A stretch of 64,000 nt of DNA from Alphaproteobacteria bacterium (GCA_965221125.1 CBDCRW010000007.1:576001-640000); one strand, 5' to 3'; positions 2,822 through 20,093 are shown, counted from the stretch's first letter. Made by a program: numbers and translations. The notes: generated by a model not told the origin, from the sequence alone.

Positions 2822-3856
2822 GTGACAGTGCGTGCCGCGCCGCGGGCGATGGTCCTGGGCTGCGCGGGCGTTGCGCTCGACGACGGCGAGCGCCGCCTCA
2901 TGGCCGATGCCGATCCGGCAGGCTTCATCCTGTTCAAGCGCAACTGCGAGAGCCCGGCGCAGACGCGGGCGCTGATCGAATCGCTCCGGGAGGCCGTGGG
3001 CCGGCCCGACGCGCCGGTGCTCGTCGATCAGGAGGGCGGGCGCGTAGTGCGGCTCGGCTCTCCCCACTGGCGCGAGCCGCCGGCGCCGGCCACGCTCGGC
3101 GCCTTGGCCGCGATCGATGAGACCGCCGGCGTGCGCGCGGCATGGTTGAACGCGCGGCTGGTGGCGGCGGATCTGCACGCGCTCGGCTTCAGCATCAACT
3201 GCGTGCCGGTGCTGGACCTCCGCTACGCCGGCGCGAGCAGGGTCGTGGGCGACCGTTCGCTCGGTGCCGACCCCCGCCCGGTGGCGAGGCTCGGCCGCGC
3301 GATCGCGGACGGCATGCTCGCCGGCGGCATCGTGCCGGCCGTCAAGCACCTGCCCGGTCATGGCCGGGCGGAGGCCGACAGCCACGCGGTGCTGCCGCAC
3401 GTGGACGCGCCGCTCGATGCGTTGCGCGCCCGCGACTTCGTGCCGTTTCGCACGCTCCGCGACGTGCCCGTGGGCCTCACGGCGCACGTCTGTTACGCCG
3501 CGCTCGATCCCGAGCGGCCGGGCACCCTCTCGCCAGAGGTCATCGCAAGGGCGGTGCGGGGCGATATCGGCTTCGACGGCCTGCTGGTGACCGACGATCT
3601 GTCCATGGGGGCGTTGACCGGCTCGGTTGGCGCCCGCGCGGCCGCCGCGCTCGCCGCCGGCTGCGACCTGGCCCTGCATTGCAACGGCAAGCGGGAGGAA
3701 ATGGAGGACGTCGCCGCGGCGGTGCCGCCGCTCGCCGGCCGGGCGCTGGAGCGATTCGAGCGCATGCTGGCGGCGCGACGGCAGCCGCAAGCGTTCGACG
3801 ATGCCGAGGGCCTTCGCGAGCTGGATGCCTTGCTCGCCAGGGTGATGCCGCAGTGA
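2822..3856 (+). CDS. nagZ: beta-N-acetylhexosaminidase (GH3)
   Basis: VDQEGGRV, KHLPGHGRAEADSH and TDDLSM motifs. Confidence 0.95.
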   Translation: MTVRAAPRAMVLGCAGVALDDGERRLMADADPAGFILFKRNCESPAQTRALIESLREAVGRPDAPVLVDQEGGRVVRLGSPHWREPPAPATLGALAAIDETAGVRAAWLNARLVAADLHALGFSINCVPVLDLRYAGASRVVGDRSLGADPRPVARLGRAIADGMLAGGIVPAVKHLPGHGRAEADSHAVLPHVDAPLDALRARDFVPFRTLRDVPVGLTAHVCYAALDPERPGTLSPEVIARAVRGDIGFDGLLVTDDLSMGALTGSVGARAAAALAAGCDLALHCNGKREEMEDVAAAVPPLAGRALERFERMLAARRQPQAFDDAEGLRELDALLARVMPQ

Positions 3857-4557
3857 TCGAAGCCTGGCTGCTCGCCGCATCGGTCTGGGTGATTCCGGTG
3901 CTGTTCGCCATTACCCTGCACGAGGTTGCGCACGGCTGGGCTGCGCTCAAGCTCGGCGACGACACGGCGGCCCGTCTCGGCCGCCTCACCCTCAATCCCA
4001 TCAAGCACGTGCACCCCGTGGGCACGATCCTGTTGCCGGGGGCCCTCATCGCGCTCGGCGCGCCGTTCGTCTTCGGCTTTGCCAAGCCGGTGCCGGTCAA
4101 TCCGGCGCGGCTTCGCAACCCGCGCGGCGGCATGGTCCTGGTGGCGCTCGCGGGGCCGGGGATGAACATCCTCCTGGCCTGCCTCTCGGCGCTGCTGCTG
4201 CACGCTGCGCTGGCCTTTCCGCCGGTGTTCGCGGAGTGGTGGCGGGCGACCTTCACCCTCGGCATCGCCATCAATCTGGTGCTGGCGATCTTCAACATGC
4301 TGCCGGTGCCGCCGCTGGACGGCGGACGCGTGGTGCACGGGTTGCTGCCGCCGCGCTCCGCCGAACGTTTCGCGCGACTCGAACGCTTTGGTATCATCGC
4401 CGTGCTGGTCGGATTCTTTATCGTGCCGCTGATCGCGGCGGAGTTCGGCAGCGCGTTCAACCCGTTGGCCGAGGTCGTGTTGCCGCCGATGGCGGCGGGC
4501 TTCGAGCTGATCGTCGACGTGTTCGGCGTGGAGGCGCTGGTGTCATGGCGAATCTGA
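3853..4557 (+). CDS. site-2 protease family (M50) membrane metalloprotease
   Basis: HEVAHG zinc motif, VALAGP, FNMLPVPPLDGG; GTG start overlaps the nagZ stop (GTGA). Confidence 0.9.
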   Translation: MIEAWLLAASVWVIPVLFAITLHEVAHGWAALKLGDDTAARLGRLTLNPIKHVHPVGTILLPGALIALGAPFVFGFAKPVPVNPARLRNPRGGMVLVALAGPGMNILLACLSALLLHAALAFPPVFAEWWRATFTLGIAINLVLAIFNMLPVPPLDGGRVVHGLLPPRSAERFARLERFGIIAVLVGFFIVPLIAAEFGSAFNPLAEVVLPPMAAGFELIVDVFGVEALVSWRI

Positions 4558-5366
4558 CACCTTTCGAGGATGACGCGGGCGCGCGGGCCACCGCAGCCCC
4601 CGACCCCGCCGGTGCGAGCGACGAGGCCCGGCTGATCGTCAATCTCGACGGCTTCGAGGGCCCGCTCGACCTGCTGCTGACGCTGGCCCGCACCCAGAAG
4701 GTCGACCTCGCGCGCATCTCCATTCTGGCGCTGGCCGAGCAGTATCTGGACTACGTCGCCCAGGCGCGGCGGCTCCGCATCGAACTCGCGGCCGGCTATC
4801 TGGTCATGGCGGCCTGGCTGGCCTACCTGAAATCGCGTCTGCTCCTGCCCGACGACGAAGCGGACGCCGAAGAGCCGAGCGGCCCCGAGATGGCGGCGGC
4901 GCTCGCGCGCAGGCTGCGGCGCCTGGCCGCGATGCGCGATGCCGCTGCGGTTCTGATGGACCGCCCGCAGCTCGGCCGCGACGTCTTCGCCGGCGGCACG
5001 GCCGAGGGTCTGCCGGTCCACGAGGAGGCGCTCCACGAGGCCACGCTCCACGAGCTGCTGCGCGCCTATGCCGCGCACCGGATCCGGCGCAAACCCCGCA
5101 ACCTCTTGATCGAGCTTAGCGCCTACCACTCCATGGACGACGCCTACCGGCGCCTCTCGCAGATGCTGGGCAGTACGCCGGAATGGGAGACCCTTGAGGG
5201 CTTCCTGCCCCGCGGCGCCGGGACAGAGAGCGAGGCAGCCGCCCGCTCCGGCCTTGCGAGCACGCTGGCTGCATCGCTGGAGCTCGCGCGCGAGGGCCGC
5301 CTGCAGATGCGCCAGATGGAGCCCTTCGGCCCCATCTACCTCCGCCGGAGACAGGAGGAGCCATGA
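4545..5366 (+). CDS. scpA: segregation and condensation protein A
   Basis: FEGPLDLLL, YLVMAAWLAYLKSRLLLP, C-terminal ASLELAREG..Q.EPFGPIYL. Confidence 0.93.
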   Translation: MANLTPFEDDAGARATAAPDPAGASDEARLIVNLDGFEGPLDLLLTLARTQKVDLARISILALAEQYLDYVAQARRLRIELAAGYLVMAAWLAYLKSRLLLPDDEADAEEPSGPEMAAALARRLRRLAAMRDAAAVLMDRPQLGRDVFAGGTAEGLPVHEEALHEATLHELLRAYAAHRIRRKPRNLLIELSAYHSMDDAYRRLSQMLGSTPEWETLEGFLPRGAGTESEAAARSGLASTLAASLELAREGRLQMRQMEPFGPIYLRRRQEEP

Positions 5367-10936: not shown

Positions 10937-11199
10937 CGCCTTCCCCTCCCCTGTCTGCCGCCGCGTCGTCCTGCCCGCAGCTCCGGCATGATAGCCGGGC
11001 GGCGCTTCGTCGGCCATTTCAGACTGCGCCGGCATGCGGCTCCCTCCCCGAAAGGCGTTCTACACGACTGAAATAAAGACATTTTTGTCGCGACGCGGAC
11101 ATCTATACAGCCGACCGGCCGATGCGTTGGAATGGCTTGCCGAGGCGTCGGCTCGTTCCTATACTCCGCGCCCATTTCGAGGTGGGATCCGGTACGGCA

Positions 11200-11625
11200 G
11201 TGACGGAGAAGAGAGTGGAGCTCCCGGCCAGGTACAGGCCAACGAGCAAGGAAGAGTTCATGTCGCCGCAGATGCGGGAGTACTTCCGGCGCAAGCTGGA
11301 AGTGTGGCGGCAGGACATCCTGGACGAGACGGACGCGACGCTGGAGAAGCTCAGGCTCGATACCGGGCACGAGGCAGACTTGGCGGATCGCGCCGCCGTC
11401 GAGTCCGAGCGGTCGGTCCAGCTTCGCACGCGAGACCGTGCCCGCAAGCTCATCTCGAAGATCGAGGCGGCATTGCAGCGGATCGAGGACGGCTCCTACG
11501 GCTATTGCGAGGAGACCGCCGAGCCGATCAGCATCCGCCGCCTCGAAGCCCGCCCGATCGCGACCCTCAGCGTCGAGGCCCAGGAGCGCCACGAGCGCCA
11601 CGAGCGCACCCACCGCGACGGTTGA
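11200..11625 (+). CDS. dksA: RNA polymerase-binding protein DksA (one-Cys, non-zinc alphaproteobacterial type)
   Basis: EEFMSPQMREYFR, DLADRA coiled-coil tip, GSYGYCEETAEPISIRRLEARPIATLSVEAQE. Confidence 0.95.
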   Translation: MTEKRVELPARYRPTSKEEFMSPQMREYFRRKLEVWRQDILDETDATLEKLRLDTGHEADLADRAAVESERSVQLRTRDRARKLISKIEAALQRIEDGSYGYCEETAEPISIRRLEARPIATLSVEAQERHERHERTHRDG

Positions 11626-11652
11626 TCGCCGATTCGGCCCGTTTGCCGGGCA

Positions 11653-12621
11653 TTACTTTGACCCATCAGCCGAGGCGCGTTCAGCTGCGAGCGGATGTCC
11701 GTGCTCGGCCGCGAGCGCGAACCAGTGGCGGGCGCGTTCGAGATCGCGGGGCACGCCATGGCCGCGTTCGTGGATCAAGCCCAAGTTGAATTCGGCGAGC
11801 GCAAAGCCGCGTTCGGCAGCGGCGCGGTGGTGGGCGAGGCCGCGCGGGGTATCCGCTGCCGTACCGGCGCCCGCGAGCAGGGTCAGACCCACCCAGTACC
11901 GCGCGAATAGCTCGTCGCCCTGGGCGTCGCCGGCCGGTGGGGAGCGGTGTGCGGCGCGCGTGCCAGCAGCGGCGATTTCCAACCATTGGTCGGAGCCGGG
12001 GCCGAGGATGCCGGTGGCAGCATCGTGCCGCGCGTCGAGAACGGCCTTCATGGCGGCCGCCGCAGCGGAGCGGAACAGAACGGCGGCGTACGGCTCGTCG
12101 CGGATCGTACCGCCTCCGGCGTCGTGAAGTTTGCCGAGTGCGAGCAACCCTTGCGGATCGCCCGCCGCAGCCGCGGCGCGCAGATGCCGCAGCGCCGCCA
12201 TGTCGTTGCCGGCGACGTCCCGCGCGATCAGACCGAGGGCGAGATGAGCCGCCGCATCGCCTCGCGCGGCCATGTCGGCGAGGTGGGCACGCGCGCCTTC
12301 GTGCCGCTGGGCCGCGGCGCGCTCCAGCCACATGAACGCTTCGGCCCGGTCGTGAGTTGGCCCGTCCTCGTCGAGGTGCGCAAGCGCCAGCAGGTACTGG
12401 GAGGCCGCATGACCCTGAACCGCCATGTTGAGCAGAACCAAGTGGCCCTCCACGCCCGCATCGGGCGATGCCGTGAGCCGGTGGGTCATGGCTGCGCTCT
12501 GTTCGACGTCCGGCGCGGCGGCCGGCGTCGACGTATCCGGTTCCGCCGAGGCCCCGAGCGGAACGAGCAGGCACGCCGCGATGGGGACCAGGCGGGCAAG
12601 CAGGAGCGGGCGAGGGGGCAT
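11653..12621 (-). CDS. exported Sel1-repeat protein
   Basis: Signal peptide; AEFNLGLIHERGHGVPRDLERARHWFALAAEHG and related repeats. Confidence 0.8.
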   Translation of the reverse strand: MPPRPLLLARLVPIAACLLVPLGASAEPDTSTPAAAPDVEQSAAMTHRLTASPDAGVEGHLVLLNMAVQGHAASQYLLALAHLDEDGPTHDRAEAFMWLERAAAQRHEGARAHLADMAARGDAAAHLALGLIARDVAGNDMAALRHLRAAAAAGDPQGLLALGKLHDAGGGTIRDEPYAAVLFRSAAAAAMKAVLDARHDAATGILGPGSDQWLEIAAAGTRAAHRSPPAGDAQGDELFARYWVGLTLLAGAGTAADTPRGLAHHRAAAERGFALAEFNLGLIHERGHGVPRDLERARHWFALAAEHGHPLAAERASADGSK

Positions 12622-12701
12622 GGGCGGAGCGTACCACCGGGCGCCGCCCCGCCCGAGGGTGGCCCTGCATCACCCCGAAGGAACGCTGACATCGTGTGGC
12701 G

Positions 12702-12735
12702 GGAGCGCGTCCGACATGCACGGACGCGCGACAGG
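12702..12735. repeat. left part of a 146-bp multi-hairpin repeat (copy 1), split by the transposon
   Basis: GGAGCGCGTCCG-ACATGCA-CGGACGCGC-GACAGG matches 39043-39076 except in the loop. Confidence 0.9.
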
Positions 12736-12881
12736 TGTTGTTTTCCGGTCTAGCCGGATAGAAGCACGGGTTTTTTTCTCACTTTGATTGGTTGGTGGAT
12801 TTCCCGGGATGGTGGCCGAGTGCGGGAAGGACGCTGCCTGCGGCATTTTTTTGATCCTCAGCAGAATCCTCATTGCTGTTG

Positions 12882-13015
12882 AAGCTGTGGAGCGGTGGGC
12901 GCGAGATCGGCGAGTGTGGTCAGGCGGTGGGCAAGCGCCAGCTTGTCCACGGGCTGTCCACACGGTCCGCAGGACGCCGATCGGTCCGCAGGACGCGTCC
13001 ACGGCTCCACAGCTT
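12882..13015. repeat. nested long imperfect palindrome with DnaA-box-like TCCAC(A/G) units in the transposon left end
   Basis: Arms 12882-12903/12994-13015 (20/22) and 12914-12936/12941-12963 (19/23); 15-bp direct repeat CGGTCCGCAGGACGC at 12963 and 12982. Confidence 0.8.
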
Positions 13016-13104
13016 GGCGGCGGCGGGGAGCGTCCGTAATCTTGGCCTCTCACTGAACGACAAAGAGAGGCCCGGGGGACGGAACTCCCGCCGGGCCAGG
13101 GCCG

Positions 13105-13740
13105 GTGCAGCTTCGCTACGAAACGGGGCTCACCAGCGAGGAATACGTTAAGACCGAGGCGTGGCGCGACGCAAGGCTTGAGCGCTGCCCGAATCACCCG
13201 CACGGCGGATGTTCTGTGGCAAGCCACGGCACCTACGAGCGGAAGACCCCGCCCGGCGCAAGGGTTCCTCGCTGGTATTGCCGTGAGAGCCATACGACCA
13301 TCGGCCTGCTGGCCGACTGTCTGGCGGCGCGGCTGCCGGGCACGCTCGATGCGCTGGAAGCGGTTGTTGTCGTGGCGGAGGAGGCCGGCAGCCTGGAGGA
13401 GGCAGCGGACGAGGTGCGCTGCCCCGAGGACGAGGACGCCATCGAGCTTCCCGGCGCCGTGCGTTGGATCCGCCGCAGGCTGAAGCTTGTGCACGACGCG
13501 CTTGTGCGCGTCATCGGCCTGATCCCCGACCTGCTCGCGGGCTGCGCGCCCACCATGAGCGCGGTGCGCGAGCGTCTGAAGAGCGACAGCGCGTTGATGG
13601 AACTGCGCGGCCTGGTCGCCGGGCAGCTCCGGACGCTACCCGCGCCTCTGGGCTTCCAACCCCACGGCATCGACGTGGGGAATCGCAAACCGCAGTTCCA
13701 ACAACGGGCGGGGCCGGACCCGCCGCCGGAGAGTTCGTAG
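13105..13740 (+). CDS. transposon accessory protein with putative Zn-binding Cys/His motifs (DUF6431-like)
   Basis: CPNH..GGC..HGTYER..RWYC..SHTTIGLLADC; first gene of the element; family assignment from memory, not searched. Confidence 0.6.
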   Translation: MQLRYETGLTSEEYVKTEAWRDARLERCPNHPHGGCSVASHGTYERKTPPGARVPRWYCRESHTTIGLLADCLAARLPGTLDALEAVVVVAEEAGSLEEAADEVRCPEDEDAIELPGAVRWIRRRLKLVHDALVRVIGLIPDLLAGCAPTMSAVRERLKSDSALMELRGLVAGQLRTLPAPLGFQPHGIDVGNRKPQFQQRAGPDPPPESS

Positions 13741-13785
13741 CGTGACGATCCCGGGGCCAGGGAGTCCCTGAACGAGGATCGCACC

Positions 13786-15114
13786 ATGAACAGCTCAGAC
13801 GACGACCTTCGCCAACAGATCGCGCTCTTCCGATACGACGTCATCGCCGATCTGGTGCATCTGCCCGTGGGTGCACCGGGTGCCGGCGCGATGATGCGCG
13901 CCAAAGCCGAGAAGACCTACACGATCCCCGGAACCACCAGGACCCGGGTCGCCGCCGAGACCATGCGGCGCTGGATCAAGGACTACCGCTACGGCGGCTT
14001 CGACGCGCTCTACCCCAAGCCCCGCACCGACCGGGGGAAGCCCCGGCGGCTGCCGCCCGAGGTCGCCGAGCGCCTCATCGCGCTGAAGACCGAGAACGAC
14101 GCATTGTCGGTTCGCGCCATCATCCAGAAGGTCAAGGAGGAGGGTATCGACCACCCGCTCGCCTCGTCCACCGTGCACCGCCTCTTCAGCCGCGAGGGCC
14201 TGTTCGACAAGAAGCCGCCCGACGGGGCGGATCGCCGCCGCTTCGCCTTCCGGCATGCCGGCGAGATGTGGATGAGCGACGTCATGCACGGACCCAAGGT
14301 CCGGCACGGCCGAACCCGGCGCAAGACCTACCTGATCGCCTTCATCGACGACGCCACCCGCGTCATCCCGTTCGCCGCCTTCGCCATGGCGGAGAACACT
14401 GCGGCGTTCCTGCCGGTGTTCAAGGACGCGCTGATCCGGCGCGGCCTCCCGGCCCGCTTGTACGTCGACAACGGAAGCGCCTACCGCTCCCGTCATCTCT
14501 CCCTGGTCTGCGCCAGGCTCGGCGTTGCGTTGATTCACGCAAGGGCGTTCCAGCCAGCGGGAAAGGGTAAGATCGAGCGCTTCTTCCGCACCCTCCGGGC
14601 CGGCTGGCTCCGCCACCTCGGCGATGACGTCGACAGCCTGGAGGCGCTCAACCGCAGCCTCTGGGCCTGGATCGAGGGGGAGTATCACAACAGCCCGCAT
14701 CGTGGCCTCGACGAGGGGCGCACCCCGCTTGAGCAGTGGGCGCTGGCCTCGGCCGGCGTGCGCTATCCCGACGCCACCATGGACCTCGACGATCTGTTCC
14801 TCTTCGAGGCCAGGCGCCGTGTCTACAAGGACCGCACCGTTAGTCTGAACGGCCGCGTCTACGAGGTCGACGCCCTCCTGGTGGGTCAGAACGTCATCCT
14901 GCGCTACGACCCGGCCGCGCCGCCCTCGCGCCCTCTCGACGTGGTCCATGACGGCAAGCCGGCCGGCAAGGCCAGCCCTCTCGACGCCTACGCCAATACC
15001 GCCGTCAGGCGCACCTACCCGGCCAGGGAGATCGAGGCCGAAGATCCGGCGCCCGAGCCTCCGCCCTCGCCGCTGGCCATGCGCAACCTCAAGGACAAGA
15101 AGGAGGACGAGTGA
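13786..15114 (+). CDS. DDE transposase/integrase (rve core, N-terminal HTHs, Mu-transposase-like C terminus)
   Basis: WMSDVMHG, IAFIDDATR, LYVDNGSAY, KGKIERFFRT; RRVYKDRTVSLNGRVYEV. Confidence 0.93.
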   Translation: MNSSDDDLRQQIALFRYDVIADLVHLPVGAPGAGAMMRAKAEKTYTIPGTTRTRVAAETMRRWIKDYRYGGFDALYPKPRTDRGKPRRLPPEVAERLIALKTENDALSVRAIIQKVKEEGIDHPLASSTVHRLFSREGLFDKKPPDGADRRRFAFRHAGEMWMSDVMHGPKVRHGRTRRKTYLIAFIDDATRVIPFAAFAMAENTAAFLPVFKDALIRRGLPARLYVDNGSAYRSRHLSLVCARLGVALIHARAFQPAGKGKIERFFRTLRAGWLRHLGDDVDSLEALNRSLWAWIEGEYHNSPHRGLDEGRTPLEQWALASAGVRYPDATMDLDDLFLFEARRRVYKDRTVSLNGRVYEVDALLVGQNVILRYDPAAPPSRPLDVVHDGKPAGKASPLDAYANTAVRRTYPAREIEAEDPAPEPPPSPLAMRNLKDKKEDE

Positions 15115-15914
15115 TGTACCTGCGCCACTTCGCCTTCACCCGCCTGCCCTTCGAGACCCCGGCAGAGACCGACGAGCTGTTCGAGTCCAACGCGCGCCGC
15201 GAGGCCGAGGCCAGGCTCGGCCACCTCATCGACCTGCGCGGCATCGGCCTGCTCACCGGCGAGGTGGGCTCCGGCAAGACCACCGTGTGCCGGCATCTGA
15301 CCGCGCAGCTTCATCCAGGCCTCTACCGGGTCCACTACGTCTCGCTGACCACGGGCAACGTGCTCGACATGTACAAGGCGATCGCGTGGGAGATCGGCCT
15401 GCCCATCGAGCGCTCCCGCGCCTCGGCCTATCAGGCCATCCGAAACGAGATCTCCCGCCTCGTCACCGAGGCCAAGCAGCTGCCGGTCCTCGTCATCGAC
15501 GAGGCCCATCATCTGCGCAACGACGTCCTTGAGGACCTGCGCCTGCTCACCAACTTCGCCATGGATGCAGAGCAGCGCCTGTGCCTCGTCCTCGTCGGTC
15601 TGACCGAGCTCAGGCGCCGCCTGGCCATGGCCATGCACGAATCCCTCAGCCAGCGCCTCGTCGTCCGCCACCACCTGAGCGGTCTCGACCGCGACGAGGT
15701 CGACGCTTACATCAAGCACCGCCTCAGGCTCGCGGGATGCGAACTGCCGCTGTTCGAAGAGCCCGCCGTCGAGGCCCTGTTCCAGGGCGCGCGCGGCCTG
15801 CCGCGCCAGATCAACCGCATCGCCCACTACGCGCTCTCCGCCGCCGCTCTCGACGAGGCGAGGACCGTCAGTGCCGACCACCTGCAGCACGCGCTCGAGG
15901 AACTGCGGCCATGA
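15111..15914 (+). CDS. ExeA/TnsC-like AAA+ transposition helper ATPase
   Basis: Walker A GEVGSGKT, Walker B LVIDEAH, LVLVG..EL, GLPRQIN; coupled to the transposase. Confidence 0.9.
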   Translation: MMYLRHFAFTRLPFETPAETDELFESNARREAEARLGHLIDLRGIGLLTGEVGSGKTTVCRHLTAQLHPGLYRVHYVSLTTGNVLDMYKAIAWEIGLPIERSRASAYQAIRNEISRLVTEAKQLPVLVIDEAHHLRNDVLEDLRLLTNFAMDAEQRLCLVLVGLTELRRRLAMAMHESLSQRLVVRHHLSGLDRDEVDAYIKHRLRLAGCELPLFEEPAVEALFQGARGLPRQINRIAHYALSAAALDEARTVSADHLQHALEELRP

Positions 15915-16951
15915 CCGGCTTCCCGACCCGCGCCCCGATCGAGCTGGAGGAGCGGCCGCGCGAGCAGCAATGGCTGGTGGACACGCTATGGGGCGAGCAG
16001 GCCGTCGGCATCGTCGGCGGCGAGCCGAAGTGCGGCAAGTCCATCCTGGCGCTGGACCTCGCGGTCGCAGTCGCCGCCGGCGTCCCATGCCTGCGGCACT
16101 TCGCCCCGGCCCGGCCTGGCCCGGTCCTGCTGTTCGCCGCAGAAGACGCCGGCCACCTCGTGCGCAAGCGCCTGCAGGGGATCGCCCGCGCCGCAGGCGC
16201 CCGCTTCGAGACCCTCGACATCGCCGTCATCGACGTGCCCACACTGCGCCTCGACCATCTCGACGACCGCCGCCGCCTGCAGCAGACCGTGGAGCGCATC
16301 GCACCGCGCCTCGTGGTCCTCGACCCCCTGGTCCGCCTGCACGGCGTGGACGAGAACACGGTTGCGGACGTCGCCCCGATCCTCGGCTTCCTGCGCGACC
16401 TGCAACGCCGCTTCGAGACCGCCGTCCTCCTCGTCCACCACGCCCGCAAGAGCGGGGCCACGAGGCCGGGGCAGGCCCTGCGGGGCAGCAGTGAGCTGCA
16501 CGCCTGGGGGGACTCGAACCTCTACCTGCGCCGCCGGGACCGGCAGACCCTCATGACCGTCGAGCATCGCGCCGCACGCGGTCTCGACGACATCGAGATC
16601 GAGCTCAAGGAAGACGGAGAGGAGCCCTCCTTCCGGCTGCGCCAGCCGCCCACGGCCGGCGGCGGGGCGCCTCAGCCCGAAACACCCGAATGCCGCGTTC
16701 TCAAGGCGCTCGCCGACGCCGGGGCGCCGCTCTCGCAACGCCAGATCCGGGAACGCGCCGCGACCCGGCACAAGACCGTCGGCGTAATCTTGCAAAAGCT
16801 CGTCCAGGAGGGTCGCGTCGCGCGCAACGCCGAGGGCGGCTACAGCGTCGTCGCAGGCGCAGCGGACAAGCGGGCGGCGGCCGCCGCCGCCAACGGCAGC
16901 AGTCGGCCGCAGGCCCCGCGGTTCCCGGAGCCCGGTTCCGCCAACGCCTAG
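15911..16951 (+). CDS. AAA_25 / RepA-like (RecA-fold, SF4-helicase-like) ATPase with C-terminal winged helix
   Basis: GGEPKCGKS, LFAAED, LVVLDP, VLLVHHARK, LRGSSEL; C-terminal LSQRQIRERAATRHKTVGVILQKLVQEG; ATGA overlap with the upstream ATPase. Confidence 0.82.
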   Translation: MTGFPTRAPIELEERPREQQWLVDTLWGEQAVGIVGGEPKCGKSILALDLAVAVAAGVPCLRHFAPARPGPVLLFAAEDAGHLVRKRLQGIARAAGARFETLDIAVIDVPTLRLDHLDDRRRLQQTVERIAPRLVVLDPLVRLHGVDENTVADVAPILGFLRDLQRRFETAVLLVHHARKSGATRPGQALRGSSELHAWGDSNLYLRRRDRQTLMTVEHRAARGLDDIEIELKEDGEEPSFRLRQPPTAGGGAPQPETPECRVLKALADAGAPLSQRQIRERAATRHKTVGVILQKLVQEGRVARNAEGGYSVVAGAADKRAAAAAANGSSRPQAPRFPEPGSANA

Positions 16952-17282
16952 GGGTTCGAGCCGGAACCGCCGTCGGGAACCACCCTTCCCCAACGGTCCG
17001 GAAGGCGCTGCGCCTCCACCGGGATACTACGTCAGGTGAGCGGCCAGTCCGTGGCCGGAAGCTTGCTTCAGGCCATGGCAGCACTTCGTCGTGTGGACGG
17101 TGGCGAGTCACCCGAAGGGCCGAAGCGAAGCGCAGGAGCGGCGCAGCCGCTTGACGCGCCGACGGCCGCGCGACACCTCGTCAGCTCTCCTCAAGCACCA
17201 GTCCAAACCTCAATCAGACAGCGACCCCGGACCGCCCGCAGAGACCATGAGCTCCTACGCTTCGATCCGGAAAAGACCGAGC

Positions 17283-17356
17283 AATCTGGGAAATCAGGGC
17301 AGCGATCACGTCAAATAATCTGGGAGATTCGGCGTCAAATAACGTGCGAAACAACA
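17283..17356. repeat. repeated putative transposase-binding sites at the transposon right end
   Basis: CGTCAAATAA at 17309 and 17333; AATCTGGGA(A/G)AT at 17283 and 17317. Confidence 0.65.
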
Positions 17357-17473
17357 ACAGGCCGCGACCGCGGCCCGCCGCGAATGCGGCGCGCCCGCGC
17401 AGGCGTTGGCCGCAGGCCAACTGCCGTGAGCGACAAAGAATCAGAGCGTTTCCGTGAAAAACGGAAACGCTCT
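17357..17473. repeat. right part of the 146-bp multi-hairpin repeat (copy 1)
   Basis: Colinear with 39072-39188; ends in hairpin AGAGCGTTTCCGT-GAAAA-ACGGAAACGCTCT, which overlaps the fixK stop codon. Confidence 0.9.
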
Positions 17474-18173
17474 AAGGCCCCTCGTCCGTCGCTGCCTCGA
17501 GGCGGCGTCGGTCGCGGATGACGACGCCGGAAAACGGCCGCAGGACGTCGATGACGCCGTCTCGCGCCAGTTGGGCGAGGGCCCGGCTCACCGTCTCCGA
17601 AGCCAGCCCGAGATAGTCGCCGATTTCCAGCTGGCTCATGGGTAGCGGGACTGTCTGGCGGCCGTCGTTGTCCGGCGCACCGCAGCGCTGCGCGCATTCC
17701 AGCAGGAAGCAGGCGATTCGCTCCCGCGCCGTCTTGCGCCCGAGCCACAACAGCCGCTCCTGAGTGGCGGCGACCTCTCGATCGAGGGCCACGAGCAGGT
17801 CTTCGTGCAGCGTCGGCGATTGCCTGGAGAGTTCCCCCACGCGCGTGCGGGGGACCGAGCAGACGCTGGCCCGGTCGAGGGCTTCGGCGCCGTAGGCGTA
17901 GTGCTCGCCGACGGTGAGCCCCACAAGGTCGCCCGGAAAGAAGAACGCGATGATCTGCCGCCGTCCGTCCTTGGTCGCCTTGTAGCCGGCAATGGTTCCG
18001 CTGAGCACGCGGTGGAAGCGGTCGGCGGAATCACCCTCGAGAACCAGCGATTCGTGGGGCGCCAGATGCCTGATGACGCCGATGGCGTCGAGCCGGTCGA
18101 AGACCGCCTGCGGCCTTTCGACGCGCACCCGATCGGTCAGTGGATGTGTGGCGGCAACCCTCATTGTGGGCAT
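17472..18173 (-). CDS. fixK: Crp/Fnr-family regulator, FixK-like (no N-terminal Fe-S cysteines)
   Basis: DGRRQIIAFFFPGD, LGRKTARERIA, EIGDYLGLASETVSR HTH; downstream of fixLJ. Confidence 0.8.
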   Translation of the reverse strand: MPTMRVAATHPLTDRVRVERPQAVFDRLDAIGVIRHLAPHESLVLEGDSADRFHRVLSGTIAGYKATKDGRRQIIAFFFPGDLVGLTVGEHYAYGAEALDRASVCSVPRTRVGELSRQSPTLHEDLLVALDREVAATQERLLWLGRKTARERIACFLLECAQRCGAPDNDGRQTVPLPMSQLEIGDYLGLASETVSRALAQLARDGVIDVLRPFSGVVIRDRRRLEAATDEGP

Positions 18174-18250
18174 TCCTCCCCGCGTCCGTCCCGGGTCTCC
18201 GGCGGGGAATGTGGTGGGTTTCGCCGCAGCATGTAATTGGGGCGGTTGCG

Positions 18251-18266
18251 TAAGGGATTGCCCTTA
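18251..18266. promoter_or_regulatory. palindromic operator TAAGGG-N4-CCCTTA upstream of fixK, candidate FixJ site
   Basis: Perfect 6-bp arms about 80 bp upstream of the fixK start; FixJ activation of fixK is established in rhizobia. Confidence 0.55.
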
Positions 18267-18325
18267 TGGCGCACGCCGTAAGGCGTCCGGCATCGGCGCG
18301 GCGCTTCCTGGGTGGCCCAGGAAAT

Positions 18326-18952
18326 TCAGATGTCGCCCATGTCCACCTGCGCGATCACGGCCATGCGCACGAGATGAGACAGGCTGCGCGCCTGCAGTTT
18401 CTCCATGACCCGCGCGCGGTGCACTTCGACCGTGCGCGGGCTGATGCCGAGGTCGCGGGCGACGGCCTTGTTCGAGCTGCCGCGTGCCAGCCGCTCGAAG
18501 ACCTCGCGCTCCCGCGCGGTCAGCCGGCCGAGCCGTCGGCCGATGTCGTGACGCCGTGCCTCGCGGCCGAGGGCCTCTTCGCGCGAGGCAAGCGCCTGGG
18601 CGATGCCGTCCAGGATCGTGCGGTCCGCAAAGGGTTTTTCGACGAAGTCCACGGCGCCCGCCTTGATCGCCTTGACCGCCATGGCGATGTCGCCGTGGCC
18701 CGTGATGATGATGACCGGCAGCGTCGGTGCGGCGGTCGCCAGCCTCCGCTGCAGTTCCAGCCCGTCCATTTCCGGCATCCGCACGTCGACGAGGGCGCAG
18801 GCGGGCAGGGCCTCGGGCAGGGAGTCCAGGAAGGCCGGGCCCGAGGGATAGGTGTCCACCTCGTAGCCTTCCGCCTCCAGCAGCGCGCTCAGGGAATCGC
18901 GCACGGCGTCGTCGTCGTCGATGACCGCGACCAGGACGGCGCCGTCAGCCAT
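18326..18952 (-). CDS. fixJ: FixJ-type response regulator (REC + LuxR HTH)
   Basis: VIDDDDAVRDSL, DVRMPEMDGLEL, GAVDFVEKPF, LGISPRTVEVHRARVMEKLQA. Confidence 0.93.
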   Translation of the reverse strand: MADGAVLVAVIDDDDAVRDSLSALLEAEGYEVDTYPSGPAFLDSLPEALPACALVDVRMPEMDGLELQRRLATAAPTLPVIIITGHGDIAMAVKAIKAGAVDFVEKPFADRTILDGIAQALASREEALGREARRHDIGRRLGRLTAREREVFERLARGSSNKAVARDLGISPRTVEVHRARVMEKLQARSLSHLVRMAVIAQVDMGDI

Positions 18953-20093
18953 CGGCCTCGCTCCCGACCGGCAGCGTGAAGCGGAAGGCGGCGCCGCCCT
19001 CCGGCGGATTCTCGGCCCAGAGCTGACCGCCGTGGGAGTCGATGATCGTGTGGCTGATGGCGAGGCCGATGCCCATGCCATCCGCCTTGGTCGTCTGGAA
19101 GGGGCGGAACGGATCGTCCGCGACATGCGGCGCGAGGCCCGGCCCGTTGTCTCTGATATCGACCTCCACCTGGTGGGGGCCGGTTGCACGGGTCGAGATG
19201 CGAATCTTGCGCTCGCCCGTCCCCTCGAATGCCTCGATGGCGTTCCGCAGGATGTTGAGAACGACCTGCTGCACCTCGATCCGATCCATCAGCACGGGCG
19301 GCAGCGCATCGTCCAGGGAGAAGATCAGCTCGATATTGCGATCGCTCGCGCCGATCAGCGCCAGCGCCGCCGCTTCCTCCACCGCGGTGTTGATGGGCTC
19401 CAGGCGGCGCTCGCTTTCGTCCTTCCTGATGAAGCGCCGCAGCCGCTTGATGATTTCGGCCGCCCGCTCGGCCTGATGCCCCGCCTTGTCGACCAGATCC
19501 GCGATGGGGGCGGGGTCCGGTTCCGTCCGCTCCAGGCGCCGCCGCGCTGCCCTCGCGTAGTTCATGATGGCCGTGAGCGGCTGATTCAGCTCGTGCGCGA
19601 TCCCCGACGCCATCTCTCCCATGGCGGAAAGCCGCGAGGCGTGCATCAGCTCCTGCTGAAGAATGCCGGCGCGCCGCTGGATGTCCTGGCGCTCGGTGAT
19701 GTCGTGGAGGAAGCCGGTGAAGAGCCGCCCCTGCTCGAGCTCGATCTCGCCGATCGAGAGGCGCGCGGGGAAGGTGGTGCCGTCCTTCCGTCTGCCCACC
19801 ACGACGCGGCCGATGCCGATGACACGCTTCTGGCCCGTCTCGCGATAGCGCCCGAGGTGGGTGTCGTGGGCCTCGCGATAGGGCGAAGGCATGAGGATCT
19901 TCACGTTCTCGCCCACCAGCTCGTCGCTGGCGTAGCCGAAGAGGCGTTCCGCCGCAGGGTTGACCGTATCGATGATGCCGGTCTCGTCGATCACGACGAT
20001 GGCGTCGGGCGCGGTCTGGGTGATCGACCGAAGGCGCTCCTCACGCTCCCGCGCCGCGGCGATGACGGTGGCGCTGCCCCCCGAGTTCGCCAT
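18945..20093 (-). CDS. fixL: soluble heme-PAS sensor histidine kinase FixL
   Basis: NVKILMPSPYREAHD..RVIGIGRVVVGRRKDGTTFP heme-PAS; IAHELNQPL; HATPase GMGIGL. Confidence 0.92.
   Translation of the reverse strand: MANSGGSATVIAAAREREERLRSITQTAPDAIVVIDETGIIDTVNPAAERLFGYASDELVGENVKILMPSPYREAHDTHLGRYRETGQKRVIGIGRVVVGRRKDGTTFPARLSIGEIELEQGRLFTGFLHDITERQDIQRRAGILQQELMHASRLSAMGEMASGIAHELNQPLTAIMNYARAARRRLERTEPDPAPIADLVDKAGHQAERAAEIIKRLRRFIRKDESERRLEPINTAVEEAAALALIGASDRNIELIFSLDDALPPVLMDRIEVQQVVLNILRNAIEAFEGTGERKIRISTRATGPHQVEVDIRDNGPGLAPHVADDPFRPFQTTKADGMGIGLAISHTIIDSHGGQLWAENPPEGGAAFRFTLPVGSEADG

Follow-up and report, generated by a model that had tools for sequence, protein, structure and literature searches.

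A portable cassette with a predicted RepA-like ATPase gene in an active transposon built on a three-gene core

When a helicase-like gene is translationally coupled to the transposition genes of a transposon, does it belong to the transposition core, or has it been added to it? The question is raised by a 4621-bp element at positions 12736-17356 of a 64,000-nt stretch of DNA from an Alphaproteobacteria bacterium (GCA_965221125.1 CBDCRW010000007.1:576001-640000; hereafter, the window). The element carries four open reading frames (ORF1-ORF4), encoding a Cys/His protein, a DDE transposase, an AAA+ ATPase, and a RepA-like ATPase, respectively. We found an active transposon that consists of a three-gene core (ORF1-ORF2-ORF3) and a portable cassette formed by ORF4 and a 137-nt structured non-coding element, and we hold these descriptive parts with high confidence. 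What is new is that the view of ORF4 as a core helicase, put forward in a prediction made from the window sequence alone (the original prediction), is corrected to that of a portable accessory cassette with a presumed role in replication.

Copy number, activity, and layout of the element

The genome assembly containing the window (4.58 Mb in 7 contigs) harboured 17 full copies of the element, 100% identical over 4621 bp, and 3 further copies, each split by a 1453-bp insertion sequence (IS) of the IS256 family, giving a total of 20. Target duplications were checked for the 17 full copies. Thirteen of these copies, at unrelated sites, had perfect 5-bp duplications that differed from one another; among the remainder, two had swapped duplications, one had one mismatch, and one had only 4 bp in common. 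The swapped pair (CCCTC/CGGGG) belonged to inverted copies located approximately 45 kb apart (C4:671960-676580, minus strand, and C4:716887-721507, plus strand), and this reciprocal exchange points to a chromosomal inversion of ~45 kb by homologous recombination between element copies. With approximately 2% of its own genome and one inversion already to its account, the element strongly drives the plasticity of genomes in these sponge-associated symbionts.

That the element is a real transposon is far beyond chance, and it is currently active. No target consensus was visible among the 17 intact insertion sites, and the long-ORF criterion was uninformative about gene disruption at repaired insertion sites at 69% GC. 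Contig depth in run X1 was ~390-400 on the element versus 14-25 on its flanks, and sequence words of the element were present in runs labelled as sponge metagenomes from several studies. One X8 contig jumped from 12730 to 17357 and so skipped 4626 bp, the length of the element together with a single copy of the duplication. This is a weak hint of an empty site, the short side of the joint being 24 nt and below the 30-nt caution limit. The features of the element and its immediate borders are as follows.

12731-12735, no strand: left copy of the ACAGG target duplication, read directly
12736-12743, plus strand: left terminal inverted repeat TGTTGTTT, a tip common to type A relatives and three-gene relatives (both described below)
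12797-12810, plus strand: left sub-terminal site GGATTTCCCGGGAT, located 62-75 nt from the tip and presumably bound by the transposase
13105-13740, plus strand: ORF1, a 211-aa Cys/His protein with the motif CPNHPH..C..H..C, first gene of the three-gene core
13786-15114, plus strand: ORF2, a 442-aa DDE transposase (HTH_32, rve, and Mu-transpos_C in Pfam)
15111 or 15114 to 15914, plus strand: ORF3, an AAA+ ATPase (AAA_22) resembling MuB, TnsC, and TniB, its start overlapping the ORF2 stop
15911-16951, plus strand: ORF4, a 346-aa ATPase of the RecA fold (AAA_25) whose C-terminal part is a winged helix, coupled to ORF3 through ATGA, first of the two cassette components
17041-17177, plus strand: structured non-coding element of 137 nt, defined by comparison and covariation, second part of the cassette
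17283-17296, minus strand: right sub-terminal site, TGATTTCCCAGATT as read from the right tip, at the same tip distance as the left site
17317-17330, minus strand: second right sub-terminal site, GAATCTCCCAGATT as read from the right tip, recognised by sequence comparison
17349-17356, plus strand: right terminal inverted repeat AAACAACA, read directly and checked across the genome copies
17357-17361, no strand: right copy of the ACAGG target duplication, read directly

The element thus starts with TGTTGTTT at 12736 and finishes with AAACAACA at 17356, and its perfect terminal inverted repeat measures 8 bp only. The site GATTTCCC(A/G)G(A/G)AT was located 62-75 nt from both tips, with an extra right-end copy at 27-40 nt, and sub-terminal sites of the GGATTTCCC type were kept in 7 related elements. 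The four genes share one orientation, with a gap of 45 nt between ORF1 and ORF2 and with overlapping junctions at ORF2/ORF3 (GTGA/TGATG) and ORF3/ORF4 (ATGA). These readings bear out the original prediction, which had described a complete and intact transposon with TG...CA termini, an exact ACAGG duplication, repeated sub-terminal sites, and four intact co-oriented genes, the last three overlapping. Its domain calls for ORF2-ORF4 (a DDE transposase with a Mu-like C terminus, an AAA+ ATPase, and an AAA_25 ATPase with a winged helix) were likewise matched by Pfam and NCBIfam. Beyond ORF1-ORF4, the element contained no further conserved long ORF, and no sigma-70-like promoter was found in it. Upstream of ORF1, we observed a 22-nt inverted repeat (12882-12903 and 12994-13015; 91% complementary) and two directly oriented occurrences of CGGTCCGCAGGACGC (12963-12977 and 12982-12996), which are possible candidates for operator or promoter-region sites.

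The three-gene core and the portable cassette

A transposase-anchored scan of metagenome contigs returned at least 571 relatives, the best 80 of which were kept. ORF2 was at least 79% identical in five of these 80 loci, and all four of the five that had downstream DNA carried ORF4. In the other 75 loci (ORF2 58-67% identical), ORF1-ORF2-ORF3 occurred together wherever the contig allowed, and neither ORF4 nor the Toprim gene described below was found in any of them, 10 of these loci having at least 1 kb of DNA beyond ORF3. Eight three-gene elements were bounded by TGT..ACA-type tips 3369-3492 bp apart, and a 5-bp duplication was present around one three-gene element (L113). Nucleotide homology between the window element and the three-gene elements began close to the left end and broke off at position 3183 of the element, where ORF4 has its start at 3176. 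On annotated plasmids of Cupriavidus, Geobacillus, and Streptomyces, a DUF6431 gene was followed by genes for a transposase (35-40% identical) and for an AAA ATPase, and ORF4 was absent from all three. ORF1-ORF2-ORF3 is a widespread, so far unnamed transposon family of ~3.45 kb, with TGT..ACA tips and 5-bp duplications.

Since ORF4 was missing from all 75 relatives at 58-67% identity, it is not a universal core gene of the class. The proposal that the core includes the helicase-like gene with its ATGA coupling is therefore not supported, most homologous elements (75 of the 75 relatives and three of the three plasmids) being devoid of it; co-occurrence inside TGT...ACA ends held for ORF1-ORF2-ORF3 and failed for ORF4. 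A class-wide genome search with ORF2 yielded a match in 1 of 400 other genomes at E<=1e-30 (four candidates scored per genome), too few for co-occurrence statistics, and blastn of the element against plasmids returned two trivial short matches only.

The ORF4 side was approached by an ORF4-anchored scan of species-representative genomes, which yielded 80 loci from ~25 metagenome-assembled genome (MAG) records. These were labelled as Alphaproteobacteria, Dehalococcoidia/Chloroflexota, Acidimicrobiales, Acidobacteria, Gemmatimonadota, Poribacteria, and a gammaproteobacterial family. Near-identical cassettes and elements occurred in MAGs whose labels name different phyla; where contigs are short, such labels call for caution. 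An ORF3-like gene lay directly upstream of ORF4 in 78 of the 80 loci, the exceptions being L059, where upstream DNA was lacking, and L058, where no match was obtained. Two types were distinguished. In type A (21 loci), all four proteins were 73-99% identical to those of the window, whereas in type B (57 loci) ORF4 was 67-80% identical and ORF2 and ORF3 only 25-32% (25-29% for the transposase). Type B elements were 4.38-4.42 kb long (up to 5.19 kb), with TGAGCG..CGCTCA tips and 4-5-bp duplications, and were present in multiple copies per MAG; the product of their first gene was Cys-rich, with a CxxC..CCxxC motif and an HTH_23 match.

Nucleotide similarity between types A and B existed only from the ORF4 start on and continued past the ORF4 stop into non-coding DNA, at 74-86% identity (e.g., 86% over 139 bp of non-coding DNA). 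ORF4 and the 137-nt element form an accessory cassette of ~1.27 kb, located exactly between ORF3 and the right end, and this cassette has, judging from the comparison of the two types, moved between transposon lineages. Because it occupies the same position in lineages whose transposases are 25-29% identical, ORF4 would not be an ordinary passenger. Elements bearing ORF4 occurred in many copies per MAG.

Regarding individual records, one MAG (L021-L027 and L043-L053, contigs CBDEUT01000000-8/9) contained types A and B together, each in many copies, and in L023 one element of each type stood tail to tail; such co-residence could allow the cassette to be exchanged between the types. A transposase with 84% identity to ORF2 (P0312) was seen on a 6.2-Mb contig recorded as Hoeflea sp., which may be a carrier of type A available in culture.

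The second part of the cassette is predicted to fold into a hairpin and a four-way junction closed by an 18-bp stem. It was 84-86% identical between types A and B, and an alignment of 13-14 elements (mean column identity of 89%) gave 45 pairs in RNAalifold, with compensatory changes in 9. Among 21 distinct sequences, 95.5% of the cells were paired, and changes on both sides were again seen in 9 pairs, compared with 3.6+/-1.1 in shuffles (0 of 500 reached 9) and 2-6 in slid controls; the 21-sequence alignment was fitted to the model, which favours structure, and a MAFFT alignment gave the same pairs. A covariance model produced 26 matches in 45 sources, at loci where ORF4 was mapped, with the structured element just downstream of ORF4 and with an extra copy in L013 away from the ORF4 of that locus. 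The same model matched 2 of 64 transposase-anchored loci, both of them bearing ORF4, and gave 20 matches in the element's own genome, one per element copy. Rfam yielded no match at 17041-17177 up to E 1 and, across 12600-17500, one chance-level match only (12897-12980). The 137-nt element is a new conserved structured nucleic-acid motif.

Within the core, the ORF2 triad (D165, D228, and E264) was invariant in all lineages aligned (alignment A8). The best NCBIfam match of ORF2 was the IS481 model NF033577, at 201.9 bits and under the cut-off of 224; the IS21 IstA model NF033546 scored 43.1 bits, under its cut-off of 160; and the solved TnsB (PDB 7svw) was matched with E 5.2e-7. ORF3 scored 95 bits for AAA_22 and 20.8 bits for TniB, under the cut-off of 22.4, and matched MuB (PDB 8xvb; E 1e-3) and PHROG 296, 'DNA transposition protein' (E 1.4e-29). 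The TnsB/TnsC-like pair of the original prediction is thereby upheld as a TnsB/MuA-like DDE transposase (rve plus Mu-transpos_C) and a MuB/TnsC-like AAA+ ATPase, as is its statement that TniQ and resolvase are not recognisable: none of the four proteins matched TnsA, resolvase, or TniQ families in Pfam or NCBIfam.

ORF1 itself matched nothing in Pfam or NCBIfam. Its family comprised 961 representative clusters at E<=1e-3, with near-invariant C28, C36, and C59 and a His at position 31. The AF2 model (mean predicted local distance difference test (pLDDT) of 93.1) combined an N-terminal beta domain with a helical domain. The nearest ESM Atlas clusters were DUF6431 (score 0.97-0.98), and PF20020 (DUF6431) gave weak matches in 7 of 41 ORF1 relatives (best E 0.0023), the window ORF1 itself having none; in the Cupriavidus, Geobacillus, and Streptomyces plasmids, annotated DUF6431 genes hold the ORF1 position upstream of the transposase. 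ORF1 is, as far as sequence and model indicate, a divergent DUF6431 protein, predicted to be of a zinc-binding plus helical DNA-binding type, through which this orphan domain gains a clear genomic role. Foldseek against the PDB returned nothing for the ORF1 model at E<=0.001, and a VIA fold search gave a best Z of 4.5, with weak helix-turn-helix (HTH)-like rows for residues 70-173 and no fold assigned; similarity to TniQ was not detectable at this best Z. Compared with the type B first-gene product, BLASTP gave nothing and hhalign a probability of 0.9% (E 0.063), the two proteins sharing position and a Cys-rich plus helical layout only. Similar to IS1 InsA and IS3 OrfA, the ORF1 protein is small, is encoded by the first gene, and has a Cys/His N-terminus before a helical, weakly HTH-like domain; this likeness to InsA- and OrfA-type regulators is architectural, and no sequence or significant structural match to them was obtained.

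In public sources, these proteins are named only 'DDE-type integrase/transposase/recombinase', 'helix-turn-helix domain-containing protein', and 'AAA family ATPase'. The gene set, DUF6431 in transposons, and a helicase-carrying DDE transposon were undescribed in the literature searched, ISfinder and TnCentral lying outside this search and a catalogued IS name being possible, which agrees with the earlier suspicion of a poorly described class. With at least 571 relatives and 961 ORF1 clusters, the three-gene core is apparently a large and widespread family for which we found no published description in that literature.

A possible replication role of the cassette and its rivals

ORF4 matched AAA_25 (PF13481) with 127 bits against a cut-off of 27, and a MarR-like winged helix was present besides. 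Residues 32-196 aligned to RSF1010 RepA (1g8y; E 9.6e-10 as a single sequence and 6e-13 as a profile), and the protein matched the helicase parts of phage primase-helicase PHROGs. The motifs GEPKCGKS (Walker A), AED, VLDP (Walker B), HHARK, and RGSS were invariant in 29 sequences, the winged helix (256-315) was modelled with a pLDDT of ~90, and ORF4 was intact in 20 of 20 genome copies. ORF4 is predicted to be a RepA-type hexameric-helicase-like ATPase. In tblastn against 72,556 plasmid records, it matched nothing at E 1e-20, and the prediction of an ORF3-ORF4 complex, with a score of 0.00, says nothing either way. Its last ~25 residues (window ~16870-16951) read ..RFPxPGSA.. in the group of the window and ..LPKTVTASNP in the group of L029, the rest being 70-80% identical, and may be a lineage-specific docking tail. 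Four AAA_22+AAA_25 fusions (P0004, P0272, P0273, and P0278) were rejected as Rosetta-stone evidence, with one member sequence each; P0004, which was inspected as the single example, looks like the result of a frameshift close to where ORF3 ends.

A replication theme also appeared in sister elements. In 22 of the 80 ORF4-anchored loci, a DUF3991+Toprim gene followed ORF4 or, in L085, replaced it. This gene matched phage DNA-primase PHROGs, and along phrog_239 (phage primase/helicase) the Toprim protein aligned to the primase part and ORF4 to the helicase part. The covariance model matched 1 of 14 Toprim-bearing loci searched (L076; a partial match of 33 bits), and in no locus did a strong structured-element match and Toprim occur together. 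This alternation is not absolute, as L055 has neither. L085 also holds a third element type (L085:8786-12900), nested in the ORF4 of a type A copy; it has ORF1-ORF2-ORF3 (44-58% identical) and then a DUF3991/Toprim-like gene, with no AAA_25 gene.

Taken as a whole, we read the element as an active transposon with an accessory replication or priming module that would assist replicative transposition, a reading to which we give an even chance. Every biochemical step of it is our inference, built on the activity, gene set, family relations, cassette boundaries, and covariation that were observed directly. The transposase would make 3'-end nicks and perform strand transfer only, because a TnsA-like nuclease is lacking, giving a Shapiro-type forked intermediate, with target DNA picked or activated by the AAA+ ATPase with little sequence preference. 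ORF4 would be loaded at the fork and unwind the element; the structured element would be a priming or loading signal, a role taken in sister elements by the Toprim primase gene; and cointegrates would be resolved by host recombination. A passage in PMC11406308 describes TnsA-less relatives as transposing replicatively, with host replication initiation needed at the Shapiro intermediate, and their cointegrates as being resolved by a recombinase or by host recombination. An element with its own helicase and priming would have less need for the host restart machinery, which would favour an increase in copy number. In a tentative extension, with the balance tilted against it, this fork-opening and priming kit would largely free replicative transposition from the restart primosome of the host and, as a portable cassette captured by different transposon lineages, may underlie copy-number bursts and cross-phylum spread in sponge symbionts.

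Several points weigh against this replication reading. The helicase, priming, and binding activities attributed to the cassette are predictions, and the ATPase core of ORF4 was modelled poorly (mean pLDDT of 55.5). ORF4 is absent from the 75 more distant relatives and the three plasmid relatives, as given above. L013's own element is without the structured segment, and the type B element in L055 ends ~240 bp past ORF4, without the structured element or Toprim. The G-U pairs of the structured element fit RNA at least as well as single-stranded DNA. The orientation of the 20 copies relative to GC skew was 10:10 (the skew being weak and scrambled in the assembly), so that no sign of coupling to replication forks, or replication-strand bias, can be claimed. 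IS481 relatives transpose by copy-out/paste-in through circles, and the closeness of the transposase to IS481 leaves such a route open, with an intermediate that may differ from that of Mu; a right-to-left circle or tandem junction was absent among the joints listed, which came only from contigs, where rare forms are dropped.

The G-U pairs lead to another possibility, which is compatible with any reading of ORF4 and which we regard as doubtful yet worth keeping in view, namely that the 137-nt element acts as RNA, either as a structured 3' end by which an ORF1-ORF4 transcript is stabilised or regulated, or as a small RNA bound by ORF4. The G-U pairs are tolerated at several positions and fit the plus (coding-sense) strand only, this strand folds into the consensus by itself while the minus strand does not, and in related elements this part is covered by contigs that come from RNA libraries, although such coverage is no proof of transcription and the strand and ends of any RNA are unreadable from contigs. 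On the other side, no promoter-like or terminator-like site was found beside the element, no Rfam family matched it, and its near-exclusive alternation with a primase-like gene is more easily explained by a priming role than by an RNA role.

It is unlikely that the cassette is instead a mini-replicon, in which an excised or copied-out circle would replicate from the structured element, recognised as an origin by the winged-helix helicase, raising copy number and the chance of horizontal transfer. A RepA-like helicase with a winged helix, the combination known from plasmid and phage initiator-helicases, would suit such a unit, as would its linkage in cis to a structured site that is conserved, as would the primase-like gene added in sister elements, the near-identical cassettes in MAGs labelled as different phyla, and a transposase near IS481, a family tied to circular intermediates. 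However, none of the joints listed connects right end to left end (a weak test, since contigs only were available), neither iterons nor an AT-rich region was noticed around the structured element, and the plasmid records searched with ORF4 held no homologue.

Alternatively, ORF4 and the structured element could be selfish or host-directed passengers (a remnant of phage or plasmid replication, or an anti-defence or defence function) without a role in transposition, an explanation we consider improbable. ORF4 is absent from most of the family, the cassette was inserted as a discrete block, and AAA_25 modules are common in mobile elements, where they are fused to PrimPol, Toprim, ParB-like, and integrase domains. 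A mere passenger is nevertheless hard to reconcile with the same block at the same position behind the ATPase gene in both lineages, whose transposases are 25-29% identical, the overlap of the ORF4 start with the ORF3 stop, NTPase motifs invariant across 29 sequences, ORF4 intact in all 20 copies, and multiple copies of ORF4-bearing elements per MAG.

Finally, it is very unlikely that ORF4 is a factor for target choice or remodelling in the manner of TniQ, TnsD, or TnsE, binding DNA structures and handing them to the AAA+ ATPase, since its translational coupling to the ATPase gene, its winged-helix DNA-binding domain, its possible docking tail (the last ~25 residues differing between types A and B), and the lack of a TniQ family match are set against 17 intact sites without a common sequence, the 10:10 orientation, three-gene relatives that insert with the same 5-bp duplication without ORF4, and the primase-like gene that replaces or accompanies ORF4 in sister elements and that points to replication more readily than to targeting.

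Comparison with known systems and neighbouring observations

A Mu-type DDE transposase with an AAA+ target ATPase is also found in Mu (MuA/MuB), Tn5053/Tn402, Tn552, the type V-K CRISPR-associated transposon (CAST), and 'TnsBC' elements, the last term appearing in a part of bioRxiv 10.1101/2024.11.13.623437. Mu and the TnsA-less Tn7 relatives further share TGT..ACA tips, multiple sub-terminal sites in asymmetric ends, a 5-bp duplication, and the lack of a 5'-cutting nuclease, from which replicative transposition is expected. Unlike these relatives, the element showed no TniQ match, has no resolvase or phage genes, begins with a DUF6431-type gene, and encodes an ATPase that scores as AAA_22/ExeA-like and below the TniB cut-off. 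To our knowledge, none of the Mu or Tn7 relatives encodes a RepA-like helicase and a structured element.

The element appears, from its proteins, to work like the Mu, Tn5053, or 'TnsBC' type, and it falls outside IS481, IS21, Tn7, and Tn5053 as these are defined. With respect to Tn7-like elements, a DDE transposase of the TnsB type is present, TnsA is absent (no family match and no further conserved ORF), and TniQ was not detected. For Tn5053/Tn402, TniR/serine resolvase was not matched by any ORF, res sites being outside the search. IS481-family IS have a single gene in about 1-1.3 kb. IS481 supplied the best NCBIfam model of ORF2, yet under its cut-off, and some homologues are named 'IS481 family transposase' by PGAP; however, the element has four genes in 4.6 kb (~3.45 kb in the three-gene relatives), a Mu-transpos_C domain, and an AAA+ partner. 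TGT/ACA tips are given as a common feature of the IS481 family in a passage of PMC11406308. IS21 (IstA/IstB) also combines a DDE transposase and an AAA+ helper in overlapping genes, but the IS21 model score was 43 bits against a cut-off of 160, the ATPase is not of the IstB type, and ORF1 and ORF4 are extra. ISPa40, considered as a related element, belongs to the Tn3 family and is irrelevant.

In relation to RSF1010 RepA and primase-helicases, ORF4 keeps Walker A, the catalytic Glu, Walker B, HHxxK, and RGSS, and when the Toprim gene found in sister elements is added, the pair mirrors a split primase/helicase. RSF1010 is organised around an iteron origin with RepC and RepB', whereas ORF4 lies inside a DDE transposon, carries a winged helix, and is tied to the 137-nt element. 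In Mu-like replicative DDE transposons, host factors start DNA synthesis at the strand-transfer fork. A transposon with its own helicase, and with a primase in sister elements, would, if this holds true, solve that step in a new way and make it tractable for study.

The IS256-family IS that splits three copies of the element (1453 bp; 343 bits versus a cut-off of 150) had 14 identical copies in the genome (e.g., G000:C7:276233-277685, in L094). Three of them interrupted the 4.6-kb element in its non-coding terminal regions, with overlaps of 8 bp (172-179 and 4557-4564 in element coordinates), and three more lay within ~1.5 kb of a copy of it, which suggests that this IS prefers the larger element or has common targets with it. 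In the flanks of the window element (11122-12621 and 17472-19189), translations judged by eye resembled DksA-type zinc finger, Sel1-repeat, CRP/FNR-type, and FixJ-type proteins.

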